A DNA stretch of 64,000 nucleotides from positions 49,648-113,647 of the forward strand of contig JACQCF010000014.1 of assembly GCA_016201795.1 (NCBI GenBank), written 5' to 3'. Origin of the DNA: Candidatus Omnitrophota bacterium (GTDB lineage Bacteria > Omnitrophota > Gorgyraeia > Zapsychrales > Fredricksoniimonadaceae). Position numbers and translations under genes: made by a program. Positions 20,781-56,991 of the stretch are shown here, in pieces (positions within the stretch are counted from its first letter, which is position 1; each line of letters starts with the position of its first letter). The notes beneath the pieces were generated by a model. The model saw nothing but the letters and a program-made list of their open reading frames with translations. It searched no databases and was not told the DNA's origin.

Positions 20781-20804
20781 CCATCGAGAGCTGAAAGGAA
20801 GGTT

Positions 20805-23939: not shown

Positions 23940-23940
23940 T

Positions 23941-24405
23941 ATGAAAACAAAATGGGTCGTCATCGTATTATTAAGTGTGGTGTTTGGCGTTGTTCGGTTC
24001 GCGTCGGCAGCCGAAGAACATGAACATAAAGAAGGTGAAGCGAAAATCCCCGCCACCATTAGCGGTATCTGGGCCGAGGTGAAGGAACACGAAGAACAAC
24101 TCGGCAAAATCATCGCGGACAAAAAGCTCGACAAGGTGCATGAGGTTGCCTTCGAGATCCGCGATTTGGTCAACGCCCTGCCAGACAAATCCATGGATCT
24201 GCTCGATGACAAACTGGCCAAGGTCAAGTCCAACGTCAAGTATGTGGCGGATATCGCCAAGCGTCTTGACGAATCCGGCGACGCCGGCGATCAAGTCGTC
24301 ACGGAAGCTAATTTCAAGAAGTTGCAGGACTTCTTGAAGACCATTGAAGCTCAATACCTGCCCGAGAAACTCAAGTACGAAGAAAAGAACGAACACAAAG
24401 AATAG
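23941..24405 (+). CDS. Periplasmic helical protein with His/Glu-rich termini (putative metal-binding chaperone or sensor-like)
   Basis: AAGGAG ribosome-binding site. Signal peptide. EEHEHKEGE at the N-terminus and EEKNEHKE at the C-terminus. Confidence 0.45.
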
Positions 24406-24428
24406 CTGCAATAAAAAGGATAAAACCC

Positions 24429-35603: not shown

Positions 35604-35643
35604 ATAAAAATTTTACTTTTTTAGAGAAAGGGCTGGGATTAAT

Positions 35644-36486: not shown

Positions 36487-36488
36487 TT

Positions 36489-37376
36489 ATGCTTGAACGA
36501 CATTGGACATGGCACCGTGTTAAAGAATTCCTGATCGAAAAATGCATTTATTTAAGCGGTGTCACTTCGATTGTTATTGTCGCGCTCATCTTTATTTTTT
36601 TGGCCAAGGAAGGATTTGCGTTATTTAAGACGGTCGGGGTGGGAGAGTTTTTGTTAGGGATAAAATGGTATCCTATTTCCCATCCGGCCCAATTTGGAAT
36701 CCTTCCTTTAATTATCGGTTCATTGGTTGTCACTATTGGCGCGACCCTGATTGCGGTTCCCATCGGAGTTGCCAGCGCAGTTTATATTTCGGAGGTGGCT
36801 TCCGGAAAAATTAAAGAGGTTTTAAAATCAGGCATTGAAGTCTTGGCTGCAATCCCCAGCGTAGTATTGGGTTTTATCGGGATGATGACGCTAGTACCGT
36901 GGGTCAAGGCTGTTTTTAATCTACCAACGGGCTTAACGGCTTTTTCTGGGGCATTGATGTTAGGATTTATGGCTATGCCGACCATCGTCAGTATCGCCGA
37001 GGATGCGCTTAATGCTGTTCCTAAACGTTATAAAGAAGCGGCGCTGGCGTTGGGGGCCACCCGGTGGCAGGCCATCTGGCGGGTCGTTTTCCCCGCGGCA
37101 TCTTCCGGCATTGTGGCAGCGGTGATGCTTGGCATCGGCCGGGTGATTGGAGAAACCATGGCAGTGATGATGATTACCGGCAATGCCGCGCGTATCCCCA
37201 CCACTATTTTTGAGCCTGTTCGTACCTTGACCGCGACGATTGCGGCGGAGATGGGCGAAACTGTGCGCGGCAGCGACCATTATTCTGCGCTTTTTGCCAT
37301 TGGTATTGTACTTTTTATAATTACGTTTATGATCAATTTGATTGCAGATATAGCGGTTCATCATAAGGCCAAATGA
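36489..37376 (+). CDS. pstC: Phosphate ABC transporter permease
   Basis: 6-TM ABC permease with an EAA loop. It is coupled to pstS and pstA. Confidence 0.85.
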   Translation: MLERHWTWHRVKEFLIEKCIYLSGVTSIVIVALIFIFLAKEGFALFKTVGVGEFLLGIKWYPISHPAQFGILPLIIGSLVVTIGATLIAVPIGVASAVYISEVASGKIKEVLKSGIEVLAAIPSVVLGFIGMMTLVPWVKAVFNLPTGLTAFSGALMLGFMAMPTIVSIAEDALNAVPKRYKEAALALGATRWQAIWRVVFPAASSGIVAAVMLGIGRVIGETMAVMMITGNAARIPTTIFEPVRTLTATIAAEMGETVRGSDHYSALFAIGIVLFIITFMINLIADIAVHHKAK

Positions 37377-38224
37377 TTAAAAATCCTTATTTAAAAGAAA
37401 AGATTGCCTTTACCCTTTTATTCGGCGCCACGGTTCTGGTGGTGTTACCGGTTATTTTTGTTCTTTTCTATATCGTCAAACAAGGATGGCCAGCCATTAA
37501 CTGGGAATTTTTGACTCAGATGCCGCAAAAAGGCATGCGTGCCGGCGGCATTTTCCCGGCGATTATCGGGACTTTATATTTAGTTTTAGGAACGCTTTTG
37601 TTCGCCTTACCGCTGGGGGTGCTCTCAGGCGTTTATTTAACCGAATATGCCAGAGATAATGGACTCACACGGTTAGTGAAGCTGGCAATTATCAATTTGG
37701 CTGGCGTGCCGTCGGTGGTGTACGGGCTTTTCGGGTTGGGAATTTTTGTGGTTTTTCTTAAATTCGGGGCATCCATTCTTGCCGGGTCTCTCACCCTGGC
37801 GATTATGGTTTTGCCCATTATTATTACCACCACCCGCGAGGCTTTAGATAGCGTGCCGCAGTCCTTCCGTCAGGTCAGTTTGTCGTTGGGGGTTTCTAAA
37901 TGGCAGACGATTCGCCACGTGGTGTTGCCGCATGCGATGCCAGGGATTCTAACCGGTATGATTTTGGCAGTTTCGCGCGCGGCCGGAGAAACAGCGCCGA
38001 TCCTTTTTACTGTAGCCGCGTTTTATTTGCCCAGGCTGCCTAAGTCTGTTTTTGATCAGGTCATGGCATTGCCATATCATTTGTACGTGATTTCAACTCA
38101 GGTGCCCCATGTGAAATTGGAGATTCGTTATGGGACGGCGCTGGTATTGCTCATCATTGTTTTATCTTTGAATCTGGTGGCGATCATCGTGCGGGCCCAA
38201 TTCCGTAAGAAGAAAAAATGGTAG
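37373..38224 (+). CDS. pstA: Phosphate ABC transporter permease
   Basis: 6-TM ABC permease. Its stop and start overlap the neighbouring genes. Confidence 0.85.
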   Translation: MIKNPYLKEKIAFTLLFGATVLVVLPVIFVLFYIVKQGWPAINWEFLTQMPQKGMRAGGIFPAIIGTLYLVLGTLLFALPLGVLSGVYLTEYARDNGLTRLVKLAIINLAGVPSVVYGLFGLGIFVVFLKFGASILAGSLTLAIMVLPIIITTTREALDSVPQSFRQVSLSLGVSKWQTIRHVVLPHAMPGILTGMILAVSRAAGETAPILFTVAAFYLPRLPKSVFDQVMALPYHLYVISTQVPHVKLEIRYGTALVLLIIVLSLNLVAIIVRAQFRKKKKW

Positions 38225-38979
38225 ACTCTTGTATTAAAATTACCATCGTGGATTTAAGTGCGTCATACGGTGCCGTTTGCGCCCTCAAGTCTCTTTCTCT
38301 GGATGTGAGGGAGGGGGAAATTTTAAGTGTGATAGGTCCTTCCAACAGCGGTAAAACCACATTTTTGCGCTGCCTGAACCGTTTTAACGACACAAACCCG
38401 CATTTTTCCCATCGGGGAATGGTGACTATCAACGGTATTGATATTTATGGTAATATTGATGTCGAGATGTTGCGTAAAAAAGTAGGGATGGTTTTCGCGT
38501 TGCCTACGGTTTTACCGATGAGTGTTTGGGAGAATGCGGCCTATGGCCTGCGCCGCCATGGCATCAGGGATGAACGGATGATTGCTTTGAGCGTTGAGAA
38601 TTCTTTGAGAGCGGCTTATTTGTGGGATGAGGTCAAGGATCGTTTGGAGGCGGCGGCTTTGAATCTTTCCGGCGGGCAGCAGCAGCGCTTGTGTCTGGCC
38701 AGGACATTGGCGGTGGAACCGGATATTATTCTTTATGACGAGCCGTGTTCGGGGCTTGATCCTATTTCCACCGCTAAAATCGAGGAGGCCATGATTCATT
38801 TTAAGGACAAGTACACCCAGATTTTGGTTACCAACAATACCAAACAAGCGGCGCGGGTCGGAAATCGGACGGCGTTTTTTTTGATGGGCCAGATGGTTGA
38901 GCTTGACGCGACGAATAAAATTTTTACCTCTCCATCGGATCAACGGACGGAAGATTATATTTCCGGGAGATTCGGTTAA
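38218..38979 (+). CDS. pstB: Phosphate ABC transporter ATP-binding protein
   Basis: Walker A (GPSNSGKTT), LSGGQQQRLCLAR and DEP. Confidence 0.85.
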   Translation: MVDSCIKITIVDLSASYGAVCALKSLSLDVREGEILSVIGPSNSGKTTFLRCLNRFNDTNPHFSHRGMVTINGIDIYGNIDVEMLRKKVGMVFALPTVLPMSVWENAAYGLRRHGIRDERMIALSVENSLRAAYLWDEVKDRLEAAALNLSGGQQQRLCLARTLAVEPDIILYDEPCSGLDPISTAKIEEAMIHFKDKYTQILVTNNTKQAARVGNRTAFFLMGQMVELDATNKIFTSPSDQRTEDYISGRFG

Positions 38980-39734
38980 TGCATACGATGATCGAAACTC
39001 ATCAGTTAAATTTTTTTTACGGGTCGTTTCACGGATTGATTGATATTAACCTGGCGGTTGCCCAGTACCAGATCACAGCGTTGATTGGTCCTTCCGGATG
39101 CGGGAAATCCACGCTGTTGCGGACGTTTAACCGGATGAACGATTTAATCGAAAATGTACGGGTGACGGGAAGGGTGTTTATCGACGGGGTGGATATTTAC
39201 ACTCCACAAACGGATTTGGTGAATCTGCGTAAAAAAGTGGGTATGGTATTTCAGCGGCCTAATCCGTTTGCTCTTTCTGTAGCTGAAAATATTTTATTTA
39301 GTGTTAAAATTCATAAGACCGCTCCGGCATCGCAGTATGAAGCGATTTTGGAAGAATCATTGCGGGCGGTGGATTTGTGGGAGGCGCTCAAGGACAAGCT
39401 CCATAGGTCGGCGTTGCAACTTTCTCTGGAGCAGCAGCAAAGGTTGTGCATCGCGCGGCTGTTGCCGGTTAAGCCCGATATTCTGCTCATGGATGAGCCG
39501 TGTTCGGCCCTGGATCCGATGTCGACGGCCCACATCGAAGAATTGATGCGTATGCTTAAAGTCAATTACACCATTTTGATTGTGACCCATAATATGCAGC
39601 AGGCGGCGCGGGTATCGGATTTTGCGGCTTTTTTGTATCTGGGAGAACTTATTGAATTCGGCAGCACGGAGAAAATGTTCACCGTGCCTAAAGACCGTCG
39701 GACAGAAGAATATTTAACCGGGAAATTCGGTTAA
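38979..39734 (+). CDS. pstB: Phosphate ABC transporter ATP-binding protein, second paralogue
   Basis: Walker A (GPSGCGKST). It has a degenerate signature (LSLEQQQRLCIAR) in place of LSGGQ. Confidence 0.8.
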   Translation: MHTMIETHQLNFFYGSFHGLIDINLAVAQYQITALIGPSGCGKSTLLRTFNRMNDLIENVRVTGRVFIDGVDIYTPQTDLVNLRKKVGMVFQRPNPFALSVAENILFSVKIHKTAPASQYEAILEESLRAVDLWEALKDKLHRSALQLSLEQQQRLCIARLLPVKPDILLMDEPCSALDPMSTAHIEELMRMLKVNYTILIVTHNMQQAARVSDFAAFLYLGELIEFGSTEKMFTVPKDRRTEEYLTGKFG

Positions 39735-39750
39735 TACCAAAGGACACCCT

Positions 39751-40416
39751 ATGCTCACAGAAAAAATGGTTGAACTCAAACACCGTCTTTTAGAAGACGC
39801 TGCTCTGGTGGAAGACATGATCGCCAAAAGCACCAAAGGCCTTCTGGAGAAAAATGTTGCTTTATTGCAGGAAGTGATTAATACCGAGGAGCCCAAGGTC
39901 AACGATTATGACCGCGCCATTGAAAAGATGTGTGTGGAGTTGATTGCCCAATTTGAGCCGGTGGCCCGCGATCTGCGCCTGGTCGTTATGATTATCAAGA
40001 TGAACAAAGATCTTGAGCGCATGGCGGATCACGCAGTCAATATTTGCGAAAGCGGAGTGTTTTTGCTCAGTAACCCTATTCTGGGATCTTATGATGATCT
40101 GCGTTTGATGGGTGAGAATGCCGTTAAAATGCTTAAGGATAGCATCAACGCCTTTGTCAATGAAGATGTTCATTTGGCCCAGTTGGTTTGCAACCGTGAT
40201 AATATCGTGGATAATACTGGCGATAAAATCCTCAAAGACCTCATCGAGGTGATGCGCGGCAAAAAAGACGCCATTCCCCGCAGCCTGCAATTGATGCGCA
40301 TTGCCCATAACTTTGAGCGCATCGCGGACTTGTCCACCAATATCGCGGAAGAAGTTATTTACATTGTCGAAGGCCGCGACATCAAACACCATCAGGCGGA
40401 TAATCCTTTAAGGTAA
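39751..40416 (+). CDS. phoU: Phosphate-signalling regulator PhoU
   Basis: Two PhoU repeats with E/DxxxD motifs (ERMADHAVNI, ERIADLSTNI). Confidence 0.85.
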   Translation: MLTEKMVELKHRLLEDAALVEDMIAKSTKGLLEKNVALLQEVINTEEPKVNDYDRAIEKMCVELIAQFEPVARDLRLVVMIIKMNKDLERMADHAVNICESGVFLLSNPILGSYDDLRLMGENAVKMLKDSINAFVNEDVHLAQLVCNRDNIVDNTGDKILKDLIEVMRGKKDAIPRSLQLMRIAHNFERIADLSTNIAEEVIYIVEGRDIKHHQADNPLR

Positions 40417-43664: not shown

Positions 43665-43713
43665 AAAATCCCGCCCCGTCCCGCATTTGCGGGACGGGGC
43701 GGGATTTTTGTTT
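43665..43713 (+). terminator. Rho-independent terminator
   Basis: Perfect 16-bp G/C-rich stem (aaaatcccgccccgtcccgc attt gcgggacggggcgggatttt) followed by a T-run. Confidence 0.85.
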
Positions 43714-43839: not shown

Positions 43840-44415
43840 ATGACCCGGGATGAAATATACGAGCACCTGGCCAAGGTTTACCTTGGCAAGCGTGAAAACG
43901 CCGCCCAACGAAAAAAGAAAAGAACCTTAAACCAGTCATGGCTGGTCATCAATATCGTGATTACAGCCGTGATTCTGATCTCGACGGTGTATGGGTTTAC
44001 GGCTTTTTTAACCCGCCGGGTAGTTTTGCAAAATCAGGTCTTCTATGCTTTAAATAATAATCCGATTCGTATCGCTTACGATCTCAATGATCCTTTTCCG
44101 TCGACCAAAACATTTTCGATTACCATCCCTCGCAAGGACGCATCCAAATACAGCCGTTTGAATTTGACCATTCGCGGCATGAACGCGGCTTATCCGGGGA
44201 TTGTGAAAATGATTGTCGGTAATCAACGCAATGAAAAGGCTACTTATTTTATTCAGAATGTGCAGAGCCATTGGCAAAAGGTCAGTGTTCCTCTGGAGAA
44301 ATTGAATTTGACGGACTGGACAACGGTGACTGATGTTTCTTTTATGCTGGAAGCCTGGAATGTGGATTTTAAAAAAGGTGCGGTGCTTATTGATGATATA
44401 TCGTTTTCAAATTAG
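43840..44415 (+). CDS. Membrane-anchored hypothetical protein with extracytoplasmic beta-sandwich (CBM/jelly-roll-like) domain
   Basis: Basic cytoplasmic N-terminus, a single TM, and a C-terminal region with the W/V/F pattern of a beta-sandwich (WQKVSVPL...VSFMLEAWNVDFKKGAVLIDDISF). Confidence 0.4.
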   Translation: MTRDEIYEHLAKVYLGKRENAAQRKKKRTLNQSWLVINIVITAVILISTVYGFTAFLTRRVVLQNQVFYALNNNPIRIAYDLNDPFPSTKTFSITIPRKDASKYSRLNLTIRGMNAAYPGIVKMIVGNQRNEKATYFIQNVQSHWQKVSVPLEKLNLTDWTTVTDVSFMLEAWNVDFKKGAVLIDDISFSN

Positions 44416-44457: not shown

Positions 44458-45591
44458 ATGAAAACTATTTCCATAGCCAATCAAAAAGGCGGGTGCGGCA
44501 AAACAACCACAGCCATTAACCTTGCTTCGAGTCTTGGCTTTATGGGCAAGAAAACCCTTTTGATTGATCTGGATCCTCAAGCCCATGCCACCCTCGGGCT
44601 TAATATCAACGACAGCTATAGCCTTTACAATGTCATTTCCAAATTAACCCCCCATAAATTAAAAATTAAGGAAATCATCAAGAGCGTGAGTAAGAATTTC
44701 GATATTGTACCCTCTAACGTTCTGTTGGGGACTTTGGAGCAGGAGTTGACGGATGAAATCGGCCGTGAATTGAAATTAGTTGAGATTTTAGTGGAGGTCA
44801 AAGGGGAGTACGATTATATTCTCATTGATTGCCCGCCGAGCCTCGGTTTTTTAACCGTTAATGCCCTGCGCGCCAGCGATCAGGTGATGATACCGGTGGA
44901 AACCAGCCGTTTTTCCATGCAGGGGGTGGATCATTTAACGGATATCATCAATCTTATCCGTGACCGTCTCAATCATCCGGTGCAGGAAAGAATTCTCATT
45001 ACCATGTTTGATTCCCGCCTGCGTCATTCTTTTGCCATGTTCTCCAAAATGAAAGAGAAGTTCGGCAAACTCCTCTATGATACGATCGTACATATTAATG
45101 TGAAACTTAAAGAATCAGCGGTGATGGGGGAGGCGGTTTTAAAATACGATAAATACTGCCGTGGCTCCAAGGATTATTTGAGTTTAGCCCGTGAGATTCT
45201 TTTGCTGGATCGGCTGCCTTCTTTGGGGGTGGTCTCTGAGACGACTCTAAAGACAGCTGAAGGAACCGATCAGACCTATAAGCCTTCCCAACGTATGCAG
45301 GATTTGGTTGTTAAAAAGACTTCGGAATTTGTGGGATCGGCCGCTTTTTCTTTGAAAGCGCCGCAAGCAGCCTTGGTGTATGTTACGGGATCTTTTAATG
45401 ACTGGTCTTTGGATGAAAAATGCCGCATGTCCAATAAGGACGGGCTCTGGACGCTTCGCCTGCCGCTGGCGGCTGGTGTTTACAAATATCAGTTTATCGT
45501 CGATGGTAAATGGCAGGAAGATCCCGAGAATAAAAATACCGAACGCAATTCTTTTGGAGATATCAATTCGCTTATCGAGGTCAAAGGCTGA
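44458..45591 (+). CDS. ParA/MinD-family ATPase fused to a C-terminal AMPK-beta-type glycogen-binding domain (CBM48)
   Basis: Deviant Walker A (NQKGGCGKTTTAINLA), Walker A' (LLIDLDPQ) and Walker B (DYILIDCPP). The C-terminal roughly 85 aa (ALVYVTGSFNDWS...GVYKYQFIVDGKWQEDPEN...NSFGDINSLIEV) fit the AMPK1_CBM/CBM48 consensus. Confidence 0.8.
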   Translation: MKTISIANQKGGCGKTTTAINLASSLGFMGKKTLLIDLDPQAHATLGLNINDSYSLYNVISKLTPHKLKIKEIIKSVSKNFDIVPSNVLLGTLEQELTDEIGRELKLVEILVEVKGEYDYILIDCPPSLGFLTVNALRASDQVMIPVETSRFSMQGVDHLTDIINLIRDRLNHPVQERILITMFDSRLRHSFAMFSKMKEKFGKLLYDTIVHINVKLKESAVMGEAVLKYDKYCRGSKDYLSLAREILLLDRLPSLGVVSETTLKTAEGTDQTYKPSQRMQDLVVKKTSEFVGSAAFSLKAPQAALVYVTGSFNDWSLDEKCRMSNKDGLWTLRLPLAAGVYKYQFIVDGKWQEDPENKNTERNSFGDINSLIEVKG

Positions 45592-45927: not shown

Positions 45928-46383
45928 ATGTCCATCCTTAAGAAATTTTCAGATACCCTTAAAGAGGTTTTCTGGATAAAATCTTCTCGTCAGAAAAAGT
46001 CTTCCCGCCGTCGTAAAGTTTCCGTTAAGAAAACAGTTAAGAAAAATAAACCCACCAAGGTCAAAAAAAGACCTGCGGCCAAACCATTACGTCCAGTTAA
46101 AGCGCTGGCTAAAATAAAAACTGTTCCGTTAGATCCCCATTTAGTGAAGGCCGGTGAAATCACTCATTACTTTGACCGCATTAAGGTGGGGGTGGTCAAA
46201 ATTAGCCGGGGAACCATTTTGATTGGCGATCGATTAACCATCGTTGGTAAAAAGAGCAAATTTGTCCAGAAAGTCTGGTCTATGCAAATTGAAAGCCAGG
46301 ACGTCAAGGTAGCTAAAAAAGGCCAGCTCATCGGCCTTAAAGTGGATAAACCTGCGCAGGCGGGAGATGTTGTTTATAAATAG
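45928..46383 (+). CDS. Protein with highly basic N-terminal tail and C-terminal EF-Tu domain-2-like beta-barrel
   Basis: KKSSRRRKVSVKKTVKKNKPTKVKKRPAAKP tail. The C-terminal segment (KVGVVKISRGTILIGDRLTIVGKK...VKVAKKGQLIGLKV...AGDVV) follows the EF-Tu domain-2 pattern. Confidence 0.45.
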   Translation: MSILKKFSDTLKEVFWIKSSRQKKSSRRRKVSVKKTVKKNKPTKVKKRPAAKPLRPVKALAKIKTVPLDPHLVKAGEITHYFDRIKVGVVKISRGTILIGDRLTIVGKKSKFVQKVWSMQIESQDVKVAKKGQLIGLKVDKPAQAGDVVYK

Positions 46384-47645: not shown

Positions 47646-47763
47646 AAATGTCCTGTTGATTGAGCGTACAGGACAGTTCTGATAAGAAAATTCCAGAAGG
47701 GGTAAAAATTATTTTTCCCGTCGAAGATGTGTTATACTTTTTTGAAATATTGAAAGGGTTTTG

Positions 47764-49299
47764 ATGCGTGCCGGAGTTATTGATATAGGATCATCTTCGA
47801 CCAAACTGCTCATCGGGGAACGCCATGGCGAAGACATCAAAATCATTGAGTCTCTTAAGAACGCCATTCCACTGGGCCGTCATGCCTTTTTAAAAAGCCG
47901 TATTCCGCAGACCATTATCAACCAAACCGCCTCTGTCTTACAAAAATACAAAGAGACCTTCAAAGAATATGACGTGGCGGATGTCATGGTCATTGCCACC
48001 ACCGCCGTGCGTGAGGCGCGCAACCAGGATATTTTCCTGGATACAGTTTTGCGTAAGACCGGTTTTAAGATTGATGTGCTCAACGCCGGGGATGTGGTTT
48101 ATTACATTGATTATTTTCTTTCTCATAAGCTCAAGAAAACTTATCCGGTGGCGGAAAAGAATCTGTTGATCGCGGAATTGGGAGCGGGAAGCCTGGATAT
48201 GTCCGTGGTGGAAAAAGGTTTAACGCTTATGAATATCGGCTTTCCCATCGGGACCTTACGCCTGTCTCAGTTTATGGAAAATTTAGACGGCTCCATGCAG
48301 GAGGTGCATGAGGCCACCGAAGAATACATTGAGAACGAAATTTTGTTTTTAAAAAAGAACAATCCCGGGCTTGTCATTGACGATATTATTCTCATCGATG
48401 AAAATTATTCGGTATTCATTCAAAACATTCTGCCCAACAAACGCCGTGATTCGGACTTTTTTAAATTCAAAGCCTCCGAGGCACAGGAGTTCTTATCCCG
48501 CCTGCGGCAGATGAACGCCCAGGAAATTGAGCGAACCTACGGGGTCCCTTCCGATATTGCGGCCACCATCGTCGGTTTTGCGATTATTCTTAACACGCTT
48601 TTTAAGCTTAACAAAAACGAGCATGTGTATATTCTGGAGGCTTCTTTGTCGGAGGCGATTTTAGCCAATCAGCTGTTTCGTCTGGAGGCCTCTGAAAAAA
48701 CGGATAAATTAAGCCAGTTGGTTTCCGTGGCGCATTTTCTCTGCCGTAGATACGGCATGGATTTAGATCACCTCAAGCACGTGGCCTTTTTTACCGAGCA
48801 GTTGTTCGAGGCTTTTAAGGACATTTTAGGTTTGAGTTCGCAGGACCGTCTGTATTTGATTTTAGCGGCCTATTTGCATGATCTGGGAATGTTTATCAAT
48901 AACCGTTCGCATCATAAACACAGTGAATATATTATTAGCTCCTCGAATTTGTTCCGTTTAACCGAGGATGAAATTGATATCATTGCCTGTATTGCCCGTT
49001 ATCATCGTCGTTCGGCACCGCTCAAAACCCATCTGGTGTATAATTCGCTTTCTTCGAATCAGCAGATTCTGGTACAAAAATTAAGCGCCCTGCTTCGCAT
49101 TGCCAATGCGCTGGACCGTTCGCATAAACAAAAGGCCAAACGCATTGCGGTCAAATTCAATGAAAGCGGCGATGCGACCATTGTGGTTTTTACGCACGAG
49201 AACTTTTTGCTGGAGAAAGAGAATTTCTTGGAGAAAAAAGAATTGCTTGAGGAGATTACCGGTAATAAATTGACCTTGACGGTCAAGAGTCAGGACTGA
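47764..49299 (+). CDS. ppx: Exopolyphosphatase / guanosine pentaphosphate phosphohydrolase (Ppx/GppA) with C-terminal HD domain
   Basis: AGVIDIGSSSTKLLIGE is a typical Ppx/GppA N-terminus (ASKHA fold). An HD-like region (YLHDLGMFIN...HHKHS) lies near the C-terminus. Confidence 0.85.
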   Translation: MRAGVIDIGSSSTKLLIGERHGEDIKIIESLKNAIPLGRHAFLKSRIPQTIINQTASVLQKYKETFKEYDVADVMVIATTAVREARNQDIFLDTVLRKTGFKIDVLNAGDVVYYIDYFLSHKLKKTYPVAEKNLLIAELGAGSLDMSVVEKGLTLMNIGFPIGTLRLSQFMENLDGSMQEVHEATEEYIENEILFLKKNNPGLVIDDIILIDENYSVFIQNILPNKRRDSDFFKFKASEAQEFLSRLRQMNAQEIERTYGVPSDIAATIVGFAIILNTLFKLNKNEHVYILEASLSEAILANQLFRLEASEKTDKLSQLVSVAHFLCRRYGMDLDHLKHVAFFTEQLFEAFKDILGLSSQDRLYLILAAYLHDLGMFINNRSHHKHSEYIISSSNLFRLTEDEIDIIACIARYHRRSAPLKTHLVYNSLSSNQQILVQKLSALLRIANALDRSHKQKAKRIAVKFNESGDATIVVFTHENFLLEKENFLEKKELLEEITGNKLTLTVKSQD

Positions 49300-49300
49300 C

Positions 49301-51319
49301 ATGGATTTGAAAGATAAATATATTCATCGTGATTTAAGCTGGCTGGGATTCAACCGTCGGGTGTTGGAAGAGGCGGGGGATGGGCATAATCCTTTGCTGG
49401 AGCGGCTGAAATTCTTAAGTATTTTTAGCAGCAATTTGGATGAGTTTTACATGGTGCGCGTGGCCGGGCTTAAAAAGCTTTTGGATTCTGGCTATAATCG
49501 CAAAGATCAATTCGGTTTTTATCCCCAGGATCTCTTTAGCGAGATTAAATTAACAGCGGACAGTTTAGTCAAAGACCTTTACGATATTTATGCCGGCTCC
49601 ATCAAGACGACGCTGGAGGCCAATAAGATTTATTTAAAAACTCTCGAGGATTTAAACGAAGCTCAGAAAAAATTCGTTAAACGTTTTTTTGACACGACGC
49701 TGTATCCGATTATCACGCCCATGGCCGTGGACCAGGGGCATCCTTTTCCTGACCTTCCCTCCAAAACTATTGCGCTGGCGGTCTCGATCATTCGTTCGGA
49801 GAAAAATCACCTGGCGATTCTTCCTGTACCTAAATCCGTGCCTCGCCTGTTGAAACTTCCCTCGGAAGGGGAGGAGTTTCATTTCATCCTTATTGACCAT
49901 TTGATTAAGGAAAATCTCAAAGAGTTCTTTAAAGGCTATAAAATTCAGGCCGCTTCGGCCTTTCGTCTGTTGCGCGACAGCGAGATCGCCTTTGATGAGG
50001 AATTTGCCCCCAATTTGCTCAAAGCCATGGAAAAAGAATTACAAAAGCGCACCAGCGCCAGGACGGTGTATGTGCAGATGGAGCAGGGAGCAAACGTAGA
50101 ACTGGTTGATATTTTATGCACCGGTCTTAGTTTTGCTAAAGAAGAAGCGGTCTTTGTCCCTTCGGATTTGGATTTGACTTTTTTTTCTGAAATGGCCAAC
50201 AGCATTGACCGGCCGGGCGTTCGTTTTGGCAGTTTTGTGCCGGCCAAGATTTCTTATGAAAATATTTTTGATAAGATTAAAGAAGAAGACTTTATCGTTC
50301 ATCTGCCTTTTCAGTCATTTTTTCCGACGGAAGATTTGATTCAGACGGCGGCCAAGGATGCGGATGTGTTGGCCATTAAAATGACACTTTATCGTACCAA
50401 TGAAGATTCAAGTATCATTAAGGCACTGATGGAAGCGGCCAAGCGCCGCAAGCAGGTCACCGTGGTGGTTGAAATCAAAGCGCGGTTTGAAGAAGAAAAG
50501 AATATTCAATGGGCTAGGGATCTGGAACAGGCGGGCTGCCATGTCATTTATGGCATTGCGGGTCTGAAAATTCACTCGAAAATGACCTTGATTGTGCGTC
50601 GGGAAGAGGGGCGCATCCGCCGCTATGTGCATTTGTCCACCGGCAATTACAATGAAAAAACCGCGTGTCTTTATACGGACATCGGCTATTTTACGGCCAA
50701 CGATGATTTTGCCCGCGACATTGCCGACGTTTTTAACGTTGTCACGGGTTATTCCCAGCCCAGCCCTTGGAAGAGGGTTATTTCCTCGCCCCATGATTTG
50801 CGTAAGTATTTTTTTGATTTGATCGACCGCGAAATTGAACATCACGGGGCGCATAAGAATGGGCTCATCATCGCCAAGATGAATTCTTTAGAAGATGTGG
50901 CGATGATTGATAAGCTCTATGCCGCTTCCCAGGCGGGGGTTAAGATCAAACTCATTGTGCGTGGCATGTGCTGTTTGATTCCCGGCCTGGAGGGTTTAAG
51001 TGAAAATATCGAGGTCAGAAGCATCATAGGACAGTTTTTGGAGCATTCACGGATTTTTGTTTTTAACAATAATAGCTCCCCCAGAATTTTTCTATCCTCG
51101 GCAGACTGGATGACGCGGAATTTCGATCGACGGGTGGAATTGTTGTTTGAAATCACCAAGCCTGAGATTAAAACTCATTTGCAGTTTGTGATGGATAATT
51201 ATTTCAAAGACAGCCTCAAGGCGCGTGTGCTTCAAAAAGATAAGACCTATGTCCGTCTGGCCCGGGATGAAGTATCCTTCGGGGCGCAGGAGTATTTTAT
51301 CAACCATTATACGAGATAA
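49301..51319 (+). CDS. ppk: Polyphosphate kinase 1
   Basis: RDLSWLGFNRRVLEEA N-terminus, followed by PLD-like HKD modules (IHSKMTLIVR, HSRIFVF). Confidence 0.95.
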   Translation: MDLKDKYIHRDLSWLGFNRRVLEEAGDGHNPLLERLKFLSIFSSNLDEFYMVRVAGLKKLLDSGYNRKDQFGFYPQDLFSEIKLTADSLVKDLYDIYAGSIKTTLEANKIYLKTLEDLNEAQKKFVKRFFDTTLYPIITPMAVDQGHPFPDLPSKTIALAVSIIRSEKNHLAILPVPKSVPRLLKLPSEGEEFHFILIDHLIKENLKEFFKGYKIQAASAFRLLRDSEIAFDEEFAPNLLKAMEKELQKRTSARTVYVQMEQGANVELVDILCTGLSFAKEEAVFVPSDLDLTFFSEMANSIDRPGVRFGSFVPAKISYENIFDKIKEEDFIVHLPFQSFFPTEDLIQTAAKDADVLAIKMTLYRTNEDSSIIKALMEAAKRRKQVTVVVEIKARFEEEKNIQWARDLEQAGCHVIYGIAGLKIHSKMTLIVRREEGRIRRYVHLSTGNYNEKTACLYTDIGYFTANDDFARDIADVFNVVTGYSQPSPWKRVISSPHDLRKYFFDLIDREIEHHGAHKNGLIIAKMNSLEDVAMIDKLYAASQAGVKIKLIVRGMCCLIPGLEGLSENIEVRSIIGQFLEHSRIFVFNNNSSPRIFLSSADWMTRNFDRRVELLFEITKPEIKTHLQFVMDNYFKDSLKARVLQKDKTYVRLARDEVSFGAQEYFINHYTR

Positions 51320-51323
51320 ACGG

Positions 51324-52145
51324 ATGAGCTATTTTATTGGTATTGATATCGGTGGAACAAAAATGGCCGGGGCGGTGGTAACGTCTCAGGGACGCATTCT
51401 GCATCGCTCTAAAATTTCGACACCGACAAAGGGTAGCGCCAAGGGTATTTTTCTGTGTCTGGTTGATTTAATCGAGGAATTGAGATCCTCTTTGTCGTCC
51501 AAGTCTTCTAAGGTCAAAGGCATTGGTCCCGCCTGTGGCGGGATTGGTCTGGGTGTACCTGGTATTGTGGATACTCACAAAGAGGTGGGGATTTTCCCCG
51601 GTACAGGCGTCGGTGGGGCGGTACTCATCAATGGCCGTTTGCTTTTAGGAATTCAAGGGGCAGCGACGGAATTGGGGCATATGGTTATGCAAGTTGACGG
51701 CCCTTTATGCCATTGCGGCAATCGCGGCTGTCTGGAAGCATTGACCAGCCGCTGGGCTATGGAGAGGGATATTCGCTCTCTGATCAAAAGCGGACACAAA
51801 AGCATAGTCAAAGAACTCAATAACGGCAGCCTGGCGACGATCAAAAGCCGCGTACTTAAAGAAGCCTTGCAAAACAATGACCCGGTTGTCAAAAAAGTTT
51901 TTAAGCAGACCTCTTCGGTATTAGGCCAGGCTTGCGTTTGCATTAACCATATTTTTAACCCTCAAGCCATCGTCTTGGGCGGAGGAGTCATCAAAGCGTG
52001 CGGGTTTTTTATGTTGCCTATCATTGAAAAAAATTTCCAATCCGATCCTTTCTTCAAAAGTTTCAACCGATGCCGCATTCTCCAATCCAGCCTAGGCGAT
52101 GACGCCGTGGTCCTGGGCGCCGTACGATTGGTCAAGAGTCGCTAA
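51324..52145 (+). CDS. ROK-family sugar kinase (glucokinase; possibly polyphosphate-utilising)
   Basis: MSYFIGIDIGGTKMAGAVV N-terminus and the ROK zinc motif HCGNRGCLEA. Confidence 0.8.
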   Translation: MSYFIGIDIGGTKMAGAVVTSQGRILHRSKISTPTKGSAKGIFLCLVDLIEELRSSLSSKSSKVKGIGPACGGIGLGVPGIVDTHKEVGIFPGTGVGGAVLINGRLLLGIQGAATELGHMVMQVDGPLCHCGNRGCLEALTSRWAMERDIRSLIKSGHKSIVKELNNGSLATIKSRVLKEALQNNDPVVKKVFKQTSSVLGQACVCINHIFNPQAIVLGGGVIKACGFFMLPIIEKNFQSDPFFKSFNRCRILQSSLGDDAVVLGAVRLVKSR

Positions 52146-52270
52146 TTTCATTGAAGCCCTACAGGAAAAAATATATAATAATTTTTTATACCTCGTGTAA
52201 TAATTTTAAACTTACACCACTCGGTATTGTGCCGAGTGACTGGTGTAGAGAATTTCGGTAACGAGGCCCT

Positions 52271-54220
52271 ATGGCTCAAGCAGTTAAGCATTCCAACAAG
52301 GTCACTACCCATCCTTTGATTACCGACCACGACGTTTATCTTTTCAAGGAAGGCAATCATTTTAGGCTTTACGAAAAGTTAGGCGCGCATCCCATGGTGG
52401 TGGAGGGCAAGCCAGGCGTGTATTTTGCCGTCTGGGCACCCAATGCCAAAAAAGTTTCGGTCATTGGCAATTTCAACAGCTGGAACCGCGACGCGCACCC
52501 CTTAATCTGCCGCTGGGATTCTTCCGGTATTTGGGAAGGCTTTATTGATGGCATCGGCAAAGGCGAGCTGTATAAATTTTACATTGTCTCCACCCGCGAT
52601 TTTTATCAGGTCGAGAAGCAGGACCCTTTCGCGTTTTTTAATGAAGGCCCCCCGCGCACAGCCTCCATCGTCTGGGATCTGGATTATCGCTGGCAGGACG
52701 ATGAGTGGATGAAGCATCGCCATTCTAAGAACAGTTTAAACGCTCCTATTTCGATTTATGAGATGCATTTGGGTTCCTGGAAGAGGGTGGTGCAAGAGGG
52801 CAATCGTTCCTTCACGTACCGCGAGCTAGCCGAGCATTTGCCCAAATATTTAAAAGAAATGGGCTTTACCCACGTCGAGTTCTTGCCGGTGATGGAGCAT
52901 CCATTTTACGGCTCCTGGGGGTATCAGACTTTAGGATATTTCTCGACGACCAGTCGCTATGGCAGTCCGCAGGATTTCATGCATTTGGTCGATTGTCTGC
53001 ATCAAAACGGCATCGGGGTTATCCTCGACTGGGTGCCTTCGCATTTCCCCTGCGACGAGCACGGCTTGTCTTATTTTGACGGCACGCATCTGTTTGAACA
53101 CGCGGACCCCAAACGAGGCTATCACCCTGATTGGAACAGCTATATTTTCAATTACAGCCGCCATGAAGTGCGCGAGTTTTTAATTTCCTCTGCCATGTTC
53201 TGGATGGATAAATTTCATGTTGATGCCCTGCGGGTGGACGCGGTAGCCTCCATGCTGTATTTGGATTATTCCCGAAAACCTTTTGAATGGATTCCTAATC
53301 ATTACGGCGGAAGGGAGAATCTAGATGCCATTTATTTTTTGCGCCGGCTCAACGAAGTTATCTACGCGGATTTTCCCGACGTACAAATGATTGCCGAGGA
53401 ATCGACCGCCTGGGGCGGGGTATCGCGGCCGACGAATGTCGGCGGTCTTGGCTTTGGCCTGAAATGGAATATGGGCTGGATGCATGACACGCTAGCGTAC
53501 ATGGCCAAAGACCCCATTTACCGCAAATATCATCACAATGAGCTGACCTTTTCGTTTTATTATGCCTTTACCGAGAATTTTTTATTGTCGCTGTCGCATG
53601 ATGAAGTGGTGCACGGCAAAGGAGCCCTGGCCGCCAAAATGCCAGGCGATGACTGGCAGAAATTTGCCAATTTGCGTCTGCTGTTAGGGTACATGTTTGC
53701 GCATCCGGGCAAAAAACTTAATTTTATGGGTTCGGAATTTGCCCAATGGAGCGAGTGGAATCATGAAAACAGCCTGGACTGGCATCTGCTGGGGTTTGCG
53801 CCGCATCAAGGCATTCATCAATGGATGAAAGATCTCAATCGTCTCTACCGGTCTGAGCCGGCCCTTTATGAGCGGGATTTTACCCCGGATGGTTTTGAAT
53901 GGATTGATTTGAATGATTACAGCCAAGGCGTTGTCAGTTTTATCCGTAAATCCGCCCATCATCAAAGTCAAATTGTCGCGGTGTGTAATTTTACACCGAT
54001 GGTATGGAATGATTATTCCATCGGTGTGCCCCATAGCGGTTTTTGGAGGGAAATTTTAAACAGCGATGCCAAAATTTACGGCGGCAGCGGCCAGGGCAAT
54101 TTAGGGGGCAAAGAAACCTCCCGCCAATCCTTTCACGGCAGACCCTTCTCATTATCATTGACAATTCCTCCGTTGGGGATATTATTTTTAAAAAGGGATA
54201 AGGGTAAAAAGGAGAAATGA
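52271..54220 (+). CDS. glgB: 1,4-alpha-glucan branching enzyme (GH13)
   Basis: N-terminal CBM48 region followed by a GH13 catalytic core (GVILDWVPSHF, LRVDAVASMLYLDYSR, EESTAW). Confidence 0.9.
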   Translation: MAQAVKHSNKVTTHPLITDHDVYLFKEGNHFRLYEKLGAHPMVVEGKPGVYFAVWAPNAKKVSVIGNFNSWNRDAHPLICRWDSSGIWEGFIDGIGKGELYKFYIVSTRDFYQVEKQDPFAFFNEGPPRTASIVWDLDYRWQDDEWMKHRHSKNSLNAPISIYEMHLGSWKRVVQEGNRSFTYRELAEHLPKYLKEMGFTHVEFLPVMEHPFYGSWGYQTLGYFSTTSRYGSPQDFMHLVDCLHQNGIGVILDWVPSHFPCDEHGLSYFDGTHLFEHADPKRGYHPDWNSYIFNYSRHEVREFLISSAMFWMDKFHVDALRVDAVASMLYLDYSRKPFEWIPNHYGGRENLDAIYFLRRLNEVIYADFPDVQMIAEESTAWGGVSRPTNVGGLGFGLKWNMGWMHDTLAYMAKDPIYRKYHHNELTFSFYYAFTENFLLSLSHDEVVHGKGALAAKMPGDDWQKFANLRLLLGYMFAHPGKKLNFMGSEFAQWSEWNHENSLDWHLLGFAPHQGIHQWMKDLNRLYRSEPALYERDFTPDGFEWIDLNDYSQGVVSFIRKSAHHQSQIVAVCNFTPMVWNDYSIGVPHSGFWREILNSDAKIYGGSGQGNLGGKETSRQSFHGRPFSLSLTIPPLGILFLKRDKGKKEK

Positions 54221-54525
54221 TTATGAAAGACAAAGTCATTGAAACAGCAGGGAAAACATGGAGGTTTTTGGGTCAAAACGGCGAGACTAACGTCGCTTGG
54301 CTTCCCAAAATACTTAAAGAAAAAGAGCCGGTGGTGTTTCAAGCGTTAGGATGGCTGGCCCGCGAGGATAAGATCAATTACACGATCAAAAACCGCCGCA
54401 ACTTTGTGTCTTTGGTTGAAGCTGAACTGCAGGCTTTCAACAGCTATATGTATCACATGAATTCTCAAGTTCACAATAGTGCAGTGTCTTCTTCTACCAA
54501 CAGCCGCCACAGAGCTAAGAGATGA
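54217..54525 (+). CDS. Small hypothetical protein (possible winged-helix fold)
   Basis: 102-aa ORF coupled between glgB and the GH57 gene. No confident domain call. Confidence 0.35.
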   Translation: MIMKDKVIETAGKTWRFLGQNGETNVAWLPKILKEKEPVVFQALGWLAREDKINYTIKNRRNFVSLVEAELQAFNSYMYHMNSQVHNSAVSSSTNSRHRAKR

Positions 54526-56990
54526 ATCGTTTTGTCTGTATCCATGGCCATTTTTACCAACCGCCCAGAGAAAATCCCTGGCTGGATGAGGTGGAGCTGC
54601 AGGATCCTGCTTATCCTTATCACGATTGGAATGAACGCATTAGCGCGGAGTGTTACGCACGCAATGCTTCCTCGCGTATCCTCGATGGTAACCATAAGAT
54701 TGTTGATATCGTCAATAATTATTCCAGGATGAGTTTCAACTTCGGTCCGACCCTCTTATCCTGGCTGGAGCAAAAAGCACCGGACGTCTATGCGGCTATT
54801 CTGGAAGCCGACCATCTGAGCCAGAAGAATTTTAGCGGCCATGGCAGCGCTTTAGCTCAAGGTTACAATCATATCATTATGCCTCTGGCCAATACCCGCG
54901 ATAAACGAACCCAGATCCTTTGGGGTATTAAGGATTTTGAGTATCGTTTTAGACGCAAGCCCGAAGGTATGTGGCTGGCCGAGACCGCCGTGGATTTGGA
55001 AACGCTGGATATCATGGCCGAGTACGGCATTAAATTTACCATCTTAGCCCCGCATCAGGCCAAAGAAGTCAAACCGACCAATCAAGAGACGCTCTGGCGT
55101 GATGTGCAGGGCCAAAAGGTGGACCCGAGGGTAGCGTATGTGTGTTATTTGCCTTCGGGACGTAAAATGAATATCTTTTTCTACAACGGACCTGTGGCTC
55201 AGGGGGTGGCCTTTGAAGGCCTTTTGAATAACGGCGAATATTTTGCCAGACGCTTAAGCCGTGAATTTAATACCCACCACACGCAAGCACAGCTGGTGCA
55301 TATCGCCACCGATGGGGAAACTTACGGCCATCATCATAAATTCGGTGATATGGCCTTAGCCTACTGCCTGCATCACATCCAGACGCATCATCTGGCCCAA
55401 CTGACGGTCTACGGCGAGTTTTTAGAAAAATTCCCGCCGCAGGTTGAAGTCACAATCGTGGAAAATTCTTCGTGGAGCTGCGTGCACGGCGTGGAACGCT
55501 GGCGGTCCAATTGCGGCTGTTCGAGCGGAGGACACGCCGGATGGACGCAAGAATGGCGCGGCCCGCTTCGCCAGGCGTTGGACTGGCTGCGCGATGAACT
55601 TATTAAGGTTTATGAGCAACATATCGGTTCATTTAACACTGACGGGTGGGCTCTGCGCGATTGTTATATTGAATTGATTTTGGACCGCAGTCAAGAGAAC
55701 GTGGAGCAGTTTATTAAAAATTATATTTCTGGGCCGCTCAATGAAGAGAGCCGTATAAAACTGTTAAAACTTTTGGAAATGCAGCATAACGCGCTTTTGA
55801 TGTATACCTCCTGCGGTTGGTTTTTTAATGAGATCTCTGGTCTTGAAACCGTGCAGATTCTTAAATACGCTGCCCGCGCCATTCAGCTGGCCCGCGAAGC
55901 CGCCGGCCCCGCCGATGGCAAGGCAGGGGCGGATTTAGAAGGAGGGTTTGTCAAACTTCTGGAGCGGGCCGCCAGCAATGTGGCAGAGTTTAAAAACGGA
56001 GCCAACATTTATTTGAACGTCGTTAAACCTTTGGTGGTGGATCTTTTGCGCGTGGGGGCGCATTATGCGGTCAGCTCTTTATTTGAACAATATCCTTCCA
56101 AGGTGCAGATGTACTGTTATACGGTTCAAAGCGAACATTATGAACTCAAAGAGGCTGGTCGTTTGCGTTTGGCCGTGGGGTATGGATGGGTTCATTCCAA
56201 TATTACCGTCGAGAAAGCCCATATTCGTTTCGCGGTTTTGCATTTAGGGGACCATAATTTTATCGGCGGGGTGGATTATCTCAAAGGCGATGAGTTTGAT
56301 GAAATGTACCAACGGATCATGGCGGCTTTTTTGGAGAGCAATGTGCCCCAGGTGATCGGTTTAATCAATTTCTATTTTGGTTCACGCAATTATTCCCTGT
56401 GGGATTTGTTCAAGCGGGAACAGCAGGCCATCCTCAATCATGTTCTGCGTTCGACCATGCAGGATATAGAAACTTCGTTCCGTCAAATTTACGAGAATCA
56501 CTACCCTTTAATGCAGATCAAAAACGATATTCGTCTGCCCTTGCCGCGCATGCTCATGACGGTGGTGGAATTTATTGTCAATAGGGATTTGGTGGCCTTG
56601 ATCGAAGGGGATGATCTGGATATTGATCGGATGAAGGTGCTGGTGGAGGAGATGAAACGATGGGCGTTTAAGCGCGATCAGGCCAATTTTAGTTTTTTAG
56701 CCAGCGGGCATTTGAATCAGCTCATGCAGAAGCTGCAGGAGCGTCCGGATGATATTGTGCTCATGGAAAAGATCACCACCGCTTTTGAATTATTGGGCCA
56801 GTTGAATCTGGATTTGGATTTATGGAAAGCCCAGAATATTTATTTTGCCATGGCCCGCAGGATTTATCCGGATACCTTCAGTCAATCCAAACACGATGAC
56901 CTTGCCCGACGATGGGTGACGTTGTTTGAGCATTTGGGCGACATCCTTCAGGTGAATATCACGGCCCCTGCCTTGGCGGGGATTCAATAA
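54522..56990 (+). CDS. Glycoside hydrolase family 57 enzyme with DUF3536-like C-terminal region
   Basis: N-terminal GH57 signature (CIHGHFYQPPRENPW...NFGPTLLSWLE...ATDGETYGHH). Confidence 0.85.
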   Translation: MNRFVCIHGHFYQPPRENPWLDEVELQDPAYPYHDWNERISAECYARNASSRILDGNHKIVDIVNNYSRMSFNFGPTLLSWLEQKAPDVYAAILEADHLSQKNFSGHGSALAQGYNHIIMPLANTRDKRTQILWGIKDFEYRFRRKPEGMWLAETAVDLETLDIMAEYGIKFTILAPHQAKEVKPTNQETLWRDVQGQKVDPRVAYVCYLPSGRKMNIFFYNGPVAQGVAFEGLLNNGEYFARRLSREFNTHHTQAQLVHIATDGETYGHHHKFGDMALAYCLHHIQTHHLAQLTVYGEFLEKFPPQVEVTIVENSSWSCVHGVERWRSNCGCSSGGHAGWTQEWRGPLRQALDWLRDELIKVYEQHIGSFNTDGWALRDCYIELILDRSQENVEQFIKNYISGPLNEESRIKLLKLLEMQHNALLMYTSCGWFFNEISGLETVQILKYAARAIQLAREAAGPADGKAGADLEGGFVKLLERAASNVAEFKNGANIYLNVVKPLVVDLLRVGAHYAVSSLFEQYPSKVQMYCYTVQSEHYELKEAGRLRLAVGYGWVHSNITVEKAHIRFAVLHLGDHNFIGGVDYLKGDEFDEMYQRIMAAFLESNVPQVIGLINFYFGSRNYSLWDLFKREQQAILNHVLRSTMQDIETSFRQIYENHYPLMQIKNDIRLPLPRMLMTVVEFIVNRDLVALIEGDDLDIDRMKVLVEEMKRWAFKRDQANFSFLASGHLNQLMQKLQERPDDIVLMEKITTAFELLGQLNLDLDLWKAQNIYFAMARRIYPDTFSQSKHDDLARRWVTLFEHLGDILQVNITAPALAGIQ

Positions 56991-56991
56991 T

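Follow-up and report, generated by a model that had tools for sequence, protein, structure and literature searches.

ATPases of the ParA/MinD family are known to act on DNA, protein organelles, chemoreceptor arrays, flagella, divisome regulators and secretion machines, and in the 2024 review of the family neither glycogen nor granules nor carbohydrate is given as a cargo class (PMC11407121). The gene described here is located at positions 44458-45591 (+) of a 64,000-nucleotide stretch of DNA (hereafter, the window) from Candidatus Omnitrophota bacterium (contig JACQCF010000014.1) and codes for a 377-aa protein (hereafter, the fusion) consisting of a ParA/Soj-type ATPase and a carbohydrate-binding module (CBM) of the AMPK-beta CBM48 type. 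To our knowledge, all the ParA/MinD cargo systems described so far recognise their cargo in trans through an adaptor, no active positioning system has been described for any polysaccharide store, and it is not known how bacteria place glycogen or share it at division. No description of such a fusion came up when the literature was searched for ParA in connection with glycogen, CBM48 or carbohydrate-binding modules. This bears out the remark in the first-pass annotation of this DNA, made from the sequence alone, that no characterised system of this kind was known.

Comparison with described systems

Chromosomal ParA/Soj proteins, such as those of Thermus thermophilus (1wcv), Helicobacter pylori (6iub) and Myxococcus xanthus (8ray), share with the fusion the fold, the size of the ATPase, the motifs and the DNA-binding arginine. 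The fusion differs from them in having no adjacent parB gene, in the additional linker and CBM48, and in a cysteine within KGGCGKT and a histidine within DPQxH. The McdA/McdB system and the other orphan ParA/MinD systems (PpfA, ParC, PomZ, MipZ, FlhG and BcsQ) resemble the fusion as orphan ATPases for non-DNA cargo with the nucleoid as the probable matrix, and a partner with a short N-terminal peptide, as in the McdA/McdB-like systems, is plausible for the fusion as well. In McdA-type systems, however, an adaptor in trans both recognises the cargo and stimulates the ATPase, whereas the fusion carries its module in cis and its presumed cargo is a polysaccharide granule. In its mode of action the fusion would come closest to the orphan ParAs that position a cargo (McdA, PpfA, PomZ).

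The closest described counterpart of the C-terminal part is the CBM (PF16561) of the beta subunits of AMPK, SNF1 and SnRK1, which is the best match in both Pfam and PDB for residues 304-376 and whose W100, W133, G147 and N150 have equivalents in the fusion. Unlike the AMPK beta subunit, the fusion is bacterial, bears the module on an ATPase and not on a kinase scaffold, lacks the beta-subunit C-terminal interaction domain and has glutamine in place of K126. MinD with its membrane-targeting sequence also possesses a weak surface binder at the C-terminus, the valency of which would be doubled by dimerisation, but the appendage of the fusion is a folded, putatively glucan-recognising CBM instead of a lipid-recognising amphipathic helix, and its DNA-binding residues are kept. 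PhaM/PhaF, connecting polyhydroxybutyrate granules with the nucleoid, and the plant PTST proteins, consisting of a coiled coil and a CBM48 and acting on starch, are bifunctional linkers of a storage polymer, as the fusion may be; PTST proteins use CBM48 to target partners to starch. These are passive adaptors with no NTPase, whereas the fusion would be an ATP-switchable ParA tether.

Architecture of the fusion protein

The open reading frame (ORF) starts with ATG and, according to the ORF list, holds the motifs KGGCGKTT, VYVTGSFNDW, YKYQFIVDGKW and DPEN. Residues 1-174 match the Pfam family AAA_31 (E 2.4e-56); CbiA also matches the ATPase (E 2.2e-15), and the ParA-like MipZ and BcsQ families overlap with it too. 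The top PDB sequence match for the N-terminal 250 residues is the M. xanthus ParA 8ray (E 3e-51), followed by the H. pylori protein and T. thermophilus Soj. The C-terminus matches AMPK1_CBM (PF16561) over residues 304-376 with an E value of 1.5e-15 and 57.6 bits, where the curated cut-off is 26.8, and CBM_48 (PF02922) with 23.8 bits, just over the cut-off of 22.4, while the PDB sequence search connects it to the CBM chains of AMPK beta1 and beta2 (E 4e-8 to 1e-6). An NCBIfam profile for a non-glycogen E-set domain, the type IX secretion system (T9SS) plug protein, matches this region as well (E 3.9e-7).

The full-length AlphaFold2 model built from 62 homologues has a mean predicted local distance difference test (pLDDT) score of 72 and a predicted template-modelling (pTM) score of 0.56. 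It consists of a Soj-like ParA fold, disordered residues 254-273 with pLDDT below 50, a helix at residues 278-290 and an all-beta region at residues 292-375 with pLDDT 78-91. The structures 8ray, 1wcv and 6iub rank first in the Foldseek search with this model (E 1e-14 to 1e-17) and are 38-47% identical to the ATPase of the fusion in sequence. These predictions confirm that the ORF encodes a complete Soj-like ParA ATPase joined by a disordered linker to a CBM48. Both domain assignments of the first-pass annotation thus hold, namely the ParA/MinD hallmarks in the N-terminal 250 or so residues and the CBM48/AMPK1_CBM domain in the last 85 or so; the latter was to be abandoned if the C-terminus failed to score as CBM48, and both profiles lie above their cut-offs. 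The structure prediction that it had proposed recovered the ParA fold, the linker and the all-beta C-terminal domain.

Conservation of the ATPase and CBM48 residues

Residues were compared in 76 family members of 34-100% identity, aligned with Soj of Bacillus subtilis and with the CBM of rat AMPK beta1. The deviant Walker A motif NQKGGCGKTT occupies residues 8-17 (44479-44508) with K10 as the signature lysine, and K10, G11, G12, C13, G14, K15 and T16 as well as the Walker B residue D124 are invariant (76/76). The A' motif reads D37-L-D39-P-Q, where D37 and D39 are at least 90% conserved in 144 aligned cluster representatives. All the catalytic motifs are intact, and by these motifs the ATPase is catalytically complete. 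R187, which corresponds to R189 of B. subtilis Soj and R195 of Caulobacter crescentus ParA, is likewise invariant in all 76 members, and K216, the counterpart of R224 in the C. crescentus protein, is lysine in 59 of them and arginine in four. Among ParA-like ATPases, R195 and R224 are the two residues conserved for binding DNA (PMC7229837), and the ATPase of the fusion probably binds DNA non-specifically.

In the C-terminal domain, W316, W352 and G367, equivalent to W100, W133 and G147 of AMPK beta1, are invariant (76/76), the position of F366 (L146 in AMPK beta1) is taken by phenylalanine or tyrosine save rare exceptions, and that of N370 (N150) by asparagine or aspartate. The position of K126 holds arginine in 46 members, lysine in 18 and glutamine in 12. 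K343 is located on the same strand two residues before this position, which is residue 345 of the fusion; 74 of the 76 members are basic at 343, at 345 or at both. In AMPK beta1, the substitutions W100G and K126Q abolish glycogen binding and W133L and G147R weaken it (PMC6274970).

Compared with the distant clade, the window protein is 40% identical in its CBM and 42% in its ATPase; judged from the alignment, the CBM is under strong selection and is conserved like the ATPase. The exact sugar-stacking residues are kept, which is not expected of a merely decorative domain or a generic protein-interaction E-set domain. The C-terminal domain is therefore likely to bind alpha-glucan.

Distribution of the fusion

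An identical protein is on record from a Candidatus Omnitrophica metagenome-assembled genome (MAG), where it is annotated as 'AAA family ATPase', and more than 120 further 90%-identity clusters, which are 68-88% identical to the window protein, have the same length and all possess PF16561. With a Tepidisphaerales member as query, more than 120 clusters of 68-100% identity were found, again all with PF16561. Annotation sources call the homologues 'chromosome partitioning protein'.

The best 80 loci, one genome per GTDB species, were selected for comparison, and all 80 align across residues 1-375 of the fusion. About 42 of the loci are from Omnitrophota, with 47-78% identity to the window protein, and the remaining ones (34-43% identity) come mainly from Phycisphaerae, namely Sedimentisphaerales and Tepidisphaerales, and from a few MAGs labelled Eisenbacteria or 'delta proteobacterium'. 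An exhaustive HMMER search was also made in 1.84 billion cluster representatives (50%-identity clusters), from which the best 150 matches were taken; both domains were detected in 129 of these with custom hidden Markov models (HMMs) for ParA and the CBM. The CBM is located at the C-terminal end in 122 of these 129 representatives, the linkers are 6 to 359 aa long (median 51), and the signature KGGCGKT plus DPQxH, which reads KGGVGKT/DPQGN in Soj, is present in 105. Such a signature points to a single old clade and not to repeated accidents. The recurrence of the two-domain architecture in 80/80 loci and 129/150 representatives is far beyond chance, and the phyletic survey suggested in the first-pass annotation shows the fusion to be old and widespread, occurring in Omnitrophota, Phycisphaerae and a few other lineages. 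Omnitrophota and these Phycisphaerae are poorly understood, mostly uncultured groups, and the abundance and strong conservation of the fusion in Omnitrophota and in soil and sediment Phycisphaerae make a role in the core cell biology of these groups likely.

Seven of the 150 best matches carry multiple CBM48 domains, in up to 18 repeats. These proteins, to which the GlgB_N and pullulanase X25 profiles match as well, are the closest non-ParA relatives of the fusion CBM. The giant proteins P0242, P0275, P0296 and P0373 have a length of 1337-1812 aa and contain 7-18 tandem AMPK1_CBM/CBM48 repeats. For the loci L002, L011, L012, L017, L022, L024 and L033, the titles of the third-party annotation records read 'uncultured Planctomycetales bacterium', while the proteins are 48-78% identical to that of the window and the synteny is that of Omnitrophota; these labels look unreliable, and counts of phyla based on titles need care.

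The operon and its membrane protein

The gene of the fusion belongs to a conserved compact operon that starts after a terminator and consists of genes coding for a 191-aa membrane protein (unk201), the fusion, a 105-aa membrane protein and a 151-aa protein (Table 1).

Table 1 Features of the fusion locus and of the neighbouring glucan and phosphate genes, with positions in the window
Feature	Position	Strand	Basis or description
Terminator-like hairpin just 3' of the Alginate_exp-family porin gene, delimiting the operon on its 5' side	43665..43708	+	Perfect and exceptionally long 20-bp stem with 14 G-C pairs, 4-nt loop
unk201, partner gene coding for a bitopic membrane protein, 191 aa	43840..44415	+	Homologue length, AlphaFold2, Foldseek
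unk201 cytoplasmic N-terminal peptide MTRDEIY(D/E)HLAKVYLGKRE	43840-43896	+	Invariant in 47 sequences
unk201 transmembrane helix	about 43939-44010	+	After a variable Lys-rich spacer
unk201 CBM11/CIA30-like beta jelly-roll, predicted periplasmic	about 44041-44409	+	AlphaFold2, Foldseek
Fusion, ParA/Soj-type ATPase domain, residues 1-252	44458..45213	+	Pfam, PDB search, alignment, Foldseek
Fusion, flexible linker, residues 253-277, then conserved helix 278-290	45214..45330	+	AlphaFold2, family alignment
Fusion, AMPK-beta-type CBM48, residues 292-377 plus stop codon	45331..45591	+	Pfam, PDB search, AlphaFold2
Small polytopic membrane protein, 105 aa	45591..45908	+	Start codon overlaps the ParA stop codon
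151-aa protein with Lys/Arg-rich disordered N-terminus and EF-Tu-domain-2-like beta-barrel	45928..46383	+	3' of the fusion in 33 Omnitrophota loci
Lineage-specific context including a DUF2582 winged helix-turn-helix (wHTH) protein, outside the conserved system	47761..58488	+	tblastn
ppx	47761-49299	+	Window annotation
ppk1	49301-51319	+	Window annotation
ROK kinase	51225-52145	+	Window annotation
glgB (GH13 with its own CBM48)	52271-54220	+	Window annotation
GH57+DUF3536	54522-56990	+	Window annotation
malQ (GH77)	56992-58488	+	Window annotation

The homologues of unk201 have a length of 190-192 aa, spanning 95% of the longer ORF, and the true start of unk201 is probably the ATG at 43840, which gives 191 aa. 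Its AlphaFold2 model contains helices at residues 3-26 and 32-64 and a beta-sandwich at residues 68-190 with pLDDT of about 90. In the Foldseek search the sandwich resembles most closely the CBM11 structure 6r3m (E 7e-8), followed by CBM8, CBM30, CBM4, CBM28 and CBM16; the Pfam match to CIA30 is weak (E 0.008), and one database names a homologue 'CIA30 family'. The flanks of the transmembrane helix contain 5.7 lysine and arginine residues on the N-terminal side versus 2.5 on the C-terminal side, the N-terminal side being the richer one in 45 of 51 homologues, so according to the positive-inside rule the N-terminus is cytoplasmic. The conserved, nearly invariant peptide would then be the only cytoplasmic part of unk201, which makes it a natural candidate for contact with the ParA domain.

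The gene unk201 is located directly 5' of the fusion in all 42 Omnitrophota loci, and a homologous form of 240-300 aa was found in nine distant loci (reciprocal HMM E 1e-5 to 1e-10), while near many distant fusions no unk201 homologue was detectable. In the first-pass annotation the cargo-recognition module was considered to be built into the ATPase itself, and the CBM48 fused in cis agrees with this; the ATPase is doubtful as an adaptor-free one given such a constant 5' neighbour. The N-terminal peptide was also considered as an activator of the ParB type, which has an LG(R/K)GL activating motif (PMC12462528). This idea was rejected, as 'LGK' is confined to the subclade of the window and the distant homologues read Q(L/E)LA(D/E)(V/I)Y(F), with D, E or N at the 'basic' position. 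The peptide is a conserved candidate interaction peptide, and its role as a ParA activator is purely hypothetical.

The 105-aa membrane protein, whose translation is coupled to that of the ParA, is encoded 3' of the fusion in 24 Omnitrophota loci and weakly resembles DUF4870/MamF_MmsF (PF09685). This likeness to a magnetosome membrane protein family, which is a broad one, is also seen in two further loci (L081, 11158-11481; L083, 11146-11466); some Omnitrophota are magnetotactic. The N-terminus of the 151-aa protein is very variable in length, and the barrel is conserved with the consensus G.ITHYFP.V.A.V.KL...GD...IKG. This protein may be a second partner or ParA activator, or a binder of polyanions such as DNA or polyphosphate (polyP). 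In Tepidisphaerales and other Phycisphaerae a protein of 480-560 aa with no Pfam match is encoded directly 3' of the fusion (L082, 11405-12955; also L070, L072, L076, L080 and L051). It has a short conserved N-terminal peptide, (L/I)S(E/D)ISHLFLS, is unrelated to unk201 and may be a clade-specific partner. Searches of Pfam and NCBIfam gave nothing significant for the 105-, 151-, 140- and 143-aa neighbours or for the downstream protein of Tepidisphaerales.

Glucan, phosphate and ParB genes near the fusion

Twenty window proteins were compared with the 80 loci by tblastn. The glgB, GH57, malQ, ROK and ppk/ppx genes, to which the first-pass annotation had drawn attention, are all present in the window on the same strand as the fusion, but they are not a family-wide neighbourhood: glgB and malQ were found close to the fusion in none of the 80 loci, and ppx, ppk and ROK in only two, those of the closest relatives (L001 and L002). 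Next to the 74-77% identical homologues on contigs of 0.68 and 1.29 Mb, rpsO, pnp and ftsK lie downstream and the block from ppx to malQ is absent. The 'glycogen/polyP neighbourhood' was dropped as family-level evidence, being lineage-specific in this comparison.

In 27 of the 42 loci from Omnitrophota and in one of the distant loci (L047), the porin gene is separated from the operon by a different gene, which codes for a 520-aa cytoplasmic GH57 protein (Pfam E 7.8e-63). In NCBIfam this protein has weak partial matches to GH57 branching enzymes, which are far under the cut-offs. The first-pass annotation would have been contradicted if the fusions were never linked to glucan metabolism genes, and this is not the case; the linkage is weaker than the window suggested and runs through this other gene. 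The Alginate_exp-family porin gene is present 5' of the operon in 31 loci at a variable distance, and the sigma-70, APRT and PPDK genes are also syntenic with the fusion. Omnitrophota MAGs generally encode glycogen synthesis (PMC8542988).

Neither the window nor any of the 80 loci scanned contains a match to GERRxRA, the box II motif by which ParB was looked for. The Pfam-annotated neighbours of the fusion, among them those in L081-L083, include no ParB family either. The paralogue search found no second ParA or CBM on the same contigs. The lack of a local ParB, together with the signature KGGCGKT/DPQxH of the family, argues that the fusion is not part of a chromosome ParABS system. A BcsQ-like role in exopolysaccharide production, prompted by the AlgE-like porin, was considered and rejected: no synthase gene was found, the distance to the porin varies and a strong terminator lies in between. 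The conserved block contains no glycosyltransferase or synthase gene, and the overlap with the CBP_BcsQ profile is weak and typical of all ParA-like proteins.

Genes related to phosphate flank the operon in the window, with a Porin_O_P porin, ORFs in the position of pstSCAB and phoU upstream (34401-40416) and ppx-ppk1 downstream (47761-51319); pstSCAB was assigned by synteny with L081 and L083, where the order pst-phoU-porin-partner-ParA recurs. The listed ROK ORF starts with GTG at 51225 and shares its first 95 nt with the end of ppk1; its true start is probably further downstream. The genes for GlgB, the DUF2582 wHTH protein, GH57+DUF3536 and MalQ are near-contiguous, with 4-nt overlaps at 54217-54220 and 54522-54525 and a 1-nt gap at 56990/56992, which suggests that the genes in 52271-58488 form a glucan operon with coupled translation, in which the small wHTH protein is embedded.

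Proposed function and alternative explanations

We tentatively favour, at somewhat less than even confidence, the reading in which the fusion is an orphan ParA that, as an ATP-bound dimer, holds glycogen on the nucleoid by means of its two CBM48 arms. Binding of ATP would lead to the usual sandwich dimer, which on nucleoid DNA would display two CBM48 arms, and only the dimer would grip alpha-glucan (glycogen) particles with useful avidity. Glycogen would in this way be tethered to the nucleoid and spread over it, would not gather into a single polar condensate and would be shared between the daughter cells. ATP hydrolysis would release the protein from both DNA and glycogen, the trigger probably being a partner peptide, for which the cytoplasmic N-terminus of unk201 would be the best candidate and the Lys-rich 151-aa protein the second; the membrane partner may also couple the granule and the ATPase cycle to the envelope. 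A tether is supported by the linker, which is disordered and of greatly varying length while the CBM nearly always remains C-terminal. In Escherichia coli, phase separation of unmanaged glycogen at the old pole displaces the nucleoid and leads to asymmetric division (PMC12706056), and the proposed tethering would counter such pole-directed phase separation. The dedicated system for positioning or partitioning glycogen suggested by the first-pass annotation thus keeps its domain logic and largely loses the gene neighbourhood as a property of the family.

Several points weigh against tethering to the nucleoid. Everything in it beyond the presence of the two domains is inferred from sequence, and the full-length model is only moderate by its pTM. 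The window protein and its close relatives carry Q345 at the position of AMPK K126, i.e. exactly the inactivating substitution. Glucan context is poor, as glgB and malQ are missing from the compared loci and the 122 genes lying at most two positions away from it in the distant loci are, by Pfam, housekeeping only, with no glucan, ParB or secretion genes among them. The most constant partner, unk201, has its only folded domain in a predicted extracytoplasmic position, for which a pure nucleoid-glycogen model has no explanation, and its peptide is no activating motif of the ParB type. Finally, a cargo binder in cis removes the ATPase/adaptor cycle behind Brownian-ratchet positioning, so the fusion may be a static tether and not a motor.

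The same constancy of unk201, which is the only neighbour conserved across phyla, would be accounted for if the ParA and unk201 worked as a unit centred on the membrane, where the N-terminal peptide would recruit the ATPase to the inner membrane or reset it there. Such a unit would anchor glycogen under the membrane or position an envelope complex whose CBM11-like domain binds a wall or periplasmic glycan, and glycogen instead of the nucleoid may then be the binding surface of the ATPase. The tightly packed operon with its terminator upstream and stop/start overlap downstream, the invariant peptide, the N-in topology and CBM-like ectodomain of unk201, the upstream porin in 31 loci and the small membrane protein after ParA in 24 are all consistent with it. 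We nevertheless regard this as unlikely, since many distant fusions have no detectable unk201 homologue, the invariant R187 argues for retained DNA binding, and the porin synteny may be inherited gene order, as sigma-70, APRT and PPDK are syntenic too. Still less probable is a related scheme in which glycogen itself is the matrix, as a third type of surface for ParA/MinD proteins: the CBM48 would become bivalent on dimerisation, as the membrane helix of MinD does, the dimers would load onto glycogen and the peptide of the membrane partner would reset them at the inner membrane, giving a self-organising system of glycogen, membrane and perhaps nucleoid that patterns the number, size and inheritance of granules and couples them to the envelope. 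Equally unlikely as the membrane-centred unit is a glycogen-sensing regulator, in which the CBM48 would sense the store and the output of the ParA would be chromosome organisation, replication control or the choice of the division site, glycogen being left unmoved. Glycogen binding would sequester the ParA or switch it allosterically, with outputs comparable to those of Soj, MipZ and PomZ. AMPK beta CBMs are indeed regulatory glycogen sensors (PMC6274970), the ATPase is nearest to chromosomal ParA/Soj with the DNA-binding arginine kept, the very high conservation (68-88% identity in two clades, each with more than 120 clusters) points to a central role in the cell cycle, and one homologue lies a few genes from ftsK. 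At the same time, no division or replication gene is consistently adjacent, the operon holds no known target protein, and a long, variable, disordered linker suits a tether better than an allosteric domain.

The identity of the presumed ligand may also be questioned. The T9SS plug match of the C-terminal region, Q345 of the window protein and the lack of glucan gene linkage in most distant members would fit a CBM48-like E-set fold serving protein contacts or self-association, the fusion then being an orphan ParA with a protein cargo. This is improbable, to the same degree as the glycogen matrix, in view of the two stacking tryptophans and the G147 equivalent, invariant down to 34% identity, the basic residue kept at 343 or 345 in nearly all members, the multi-CBM48 proteins with their GlgB_N and pullulanase X25 matches as the closest non-ParA relatives, and the GH57 gene adjoining the operon in most of the Omnitrophota loci. 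Least probable, and in our opinion very unlikely, is an ordinary chromosome-partitioning ParA (Soj) with its ParB encoded elsewhere and the CBM48 as an accessory decoration. The best relatives of the ATPase are chromosomal ParAs at 38-47% identity, the homologues are annotated as partitioning proteins, and no second ParA was present at the loci retrieved; parA and parB are, however, almost always adjacent, no ParB motif or domain was detected in the more than 80 loci to which the search extended, and the signature differs from that of Soj.

If the tethering reading is true, a ParA with a built-in glycogen module adds both a new cargo class and natural cargo recognition in cis to the family, and the fusion may represent the first machinery in bacteria by which stores of glycogen are placed or partitioned. 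It would also offer a minimal testable handle, being one protein with two domains and clear point mutants (K15, D39, R187, W316 and W352).

Other features of the window

Positions 13611-26720 of the window contain a metal-efflux cluster with genes coding for an HlyD-like adaptor with a heavy-metal-binding domain, two AcrB/CusA-type resistance-nodulation-division (RND) pumps of 1085 and 1044 aa, an outer membrane factor and a P-type ATPase with YHS and HMBD domains. A gene for an Nramp transporter is located on the opposite strand (26673-27953).

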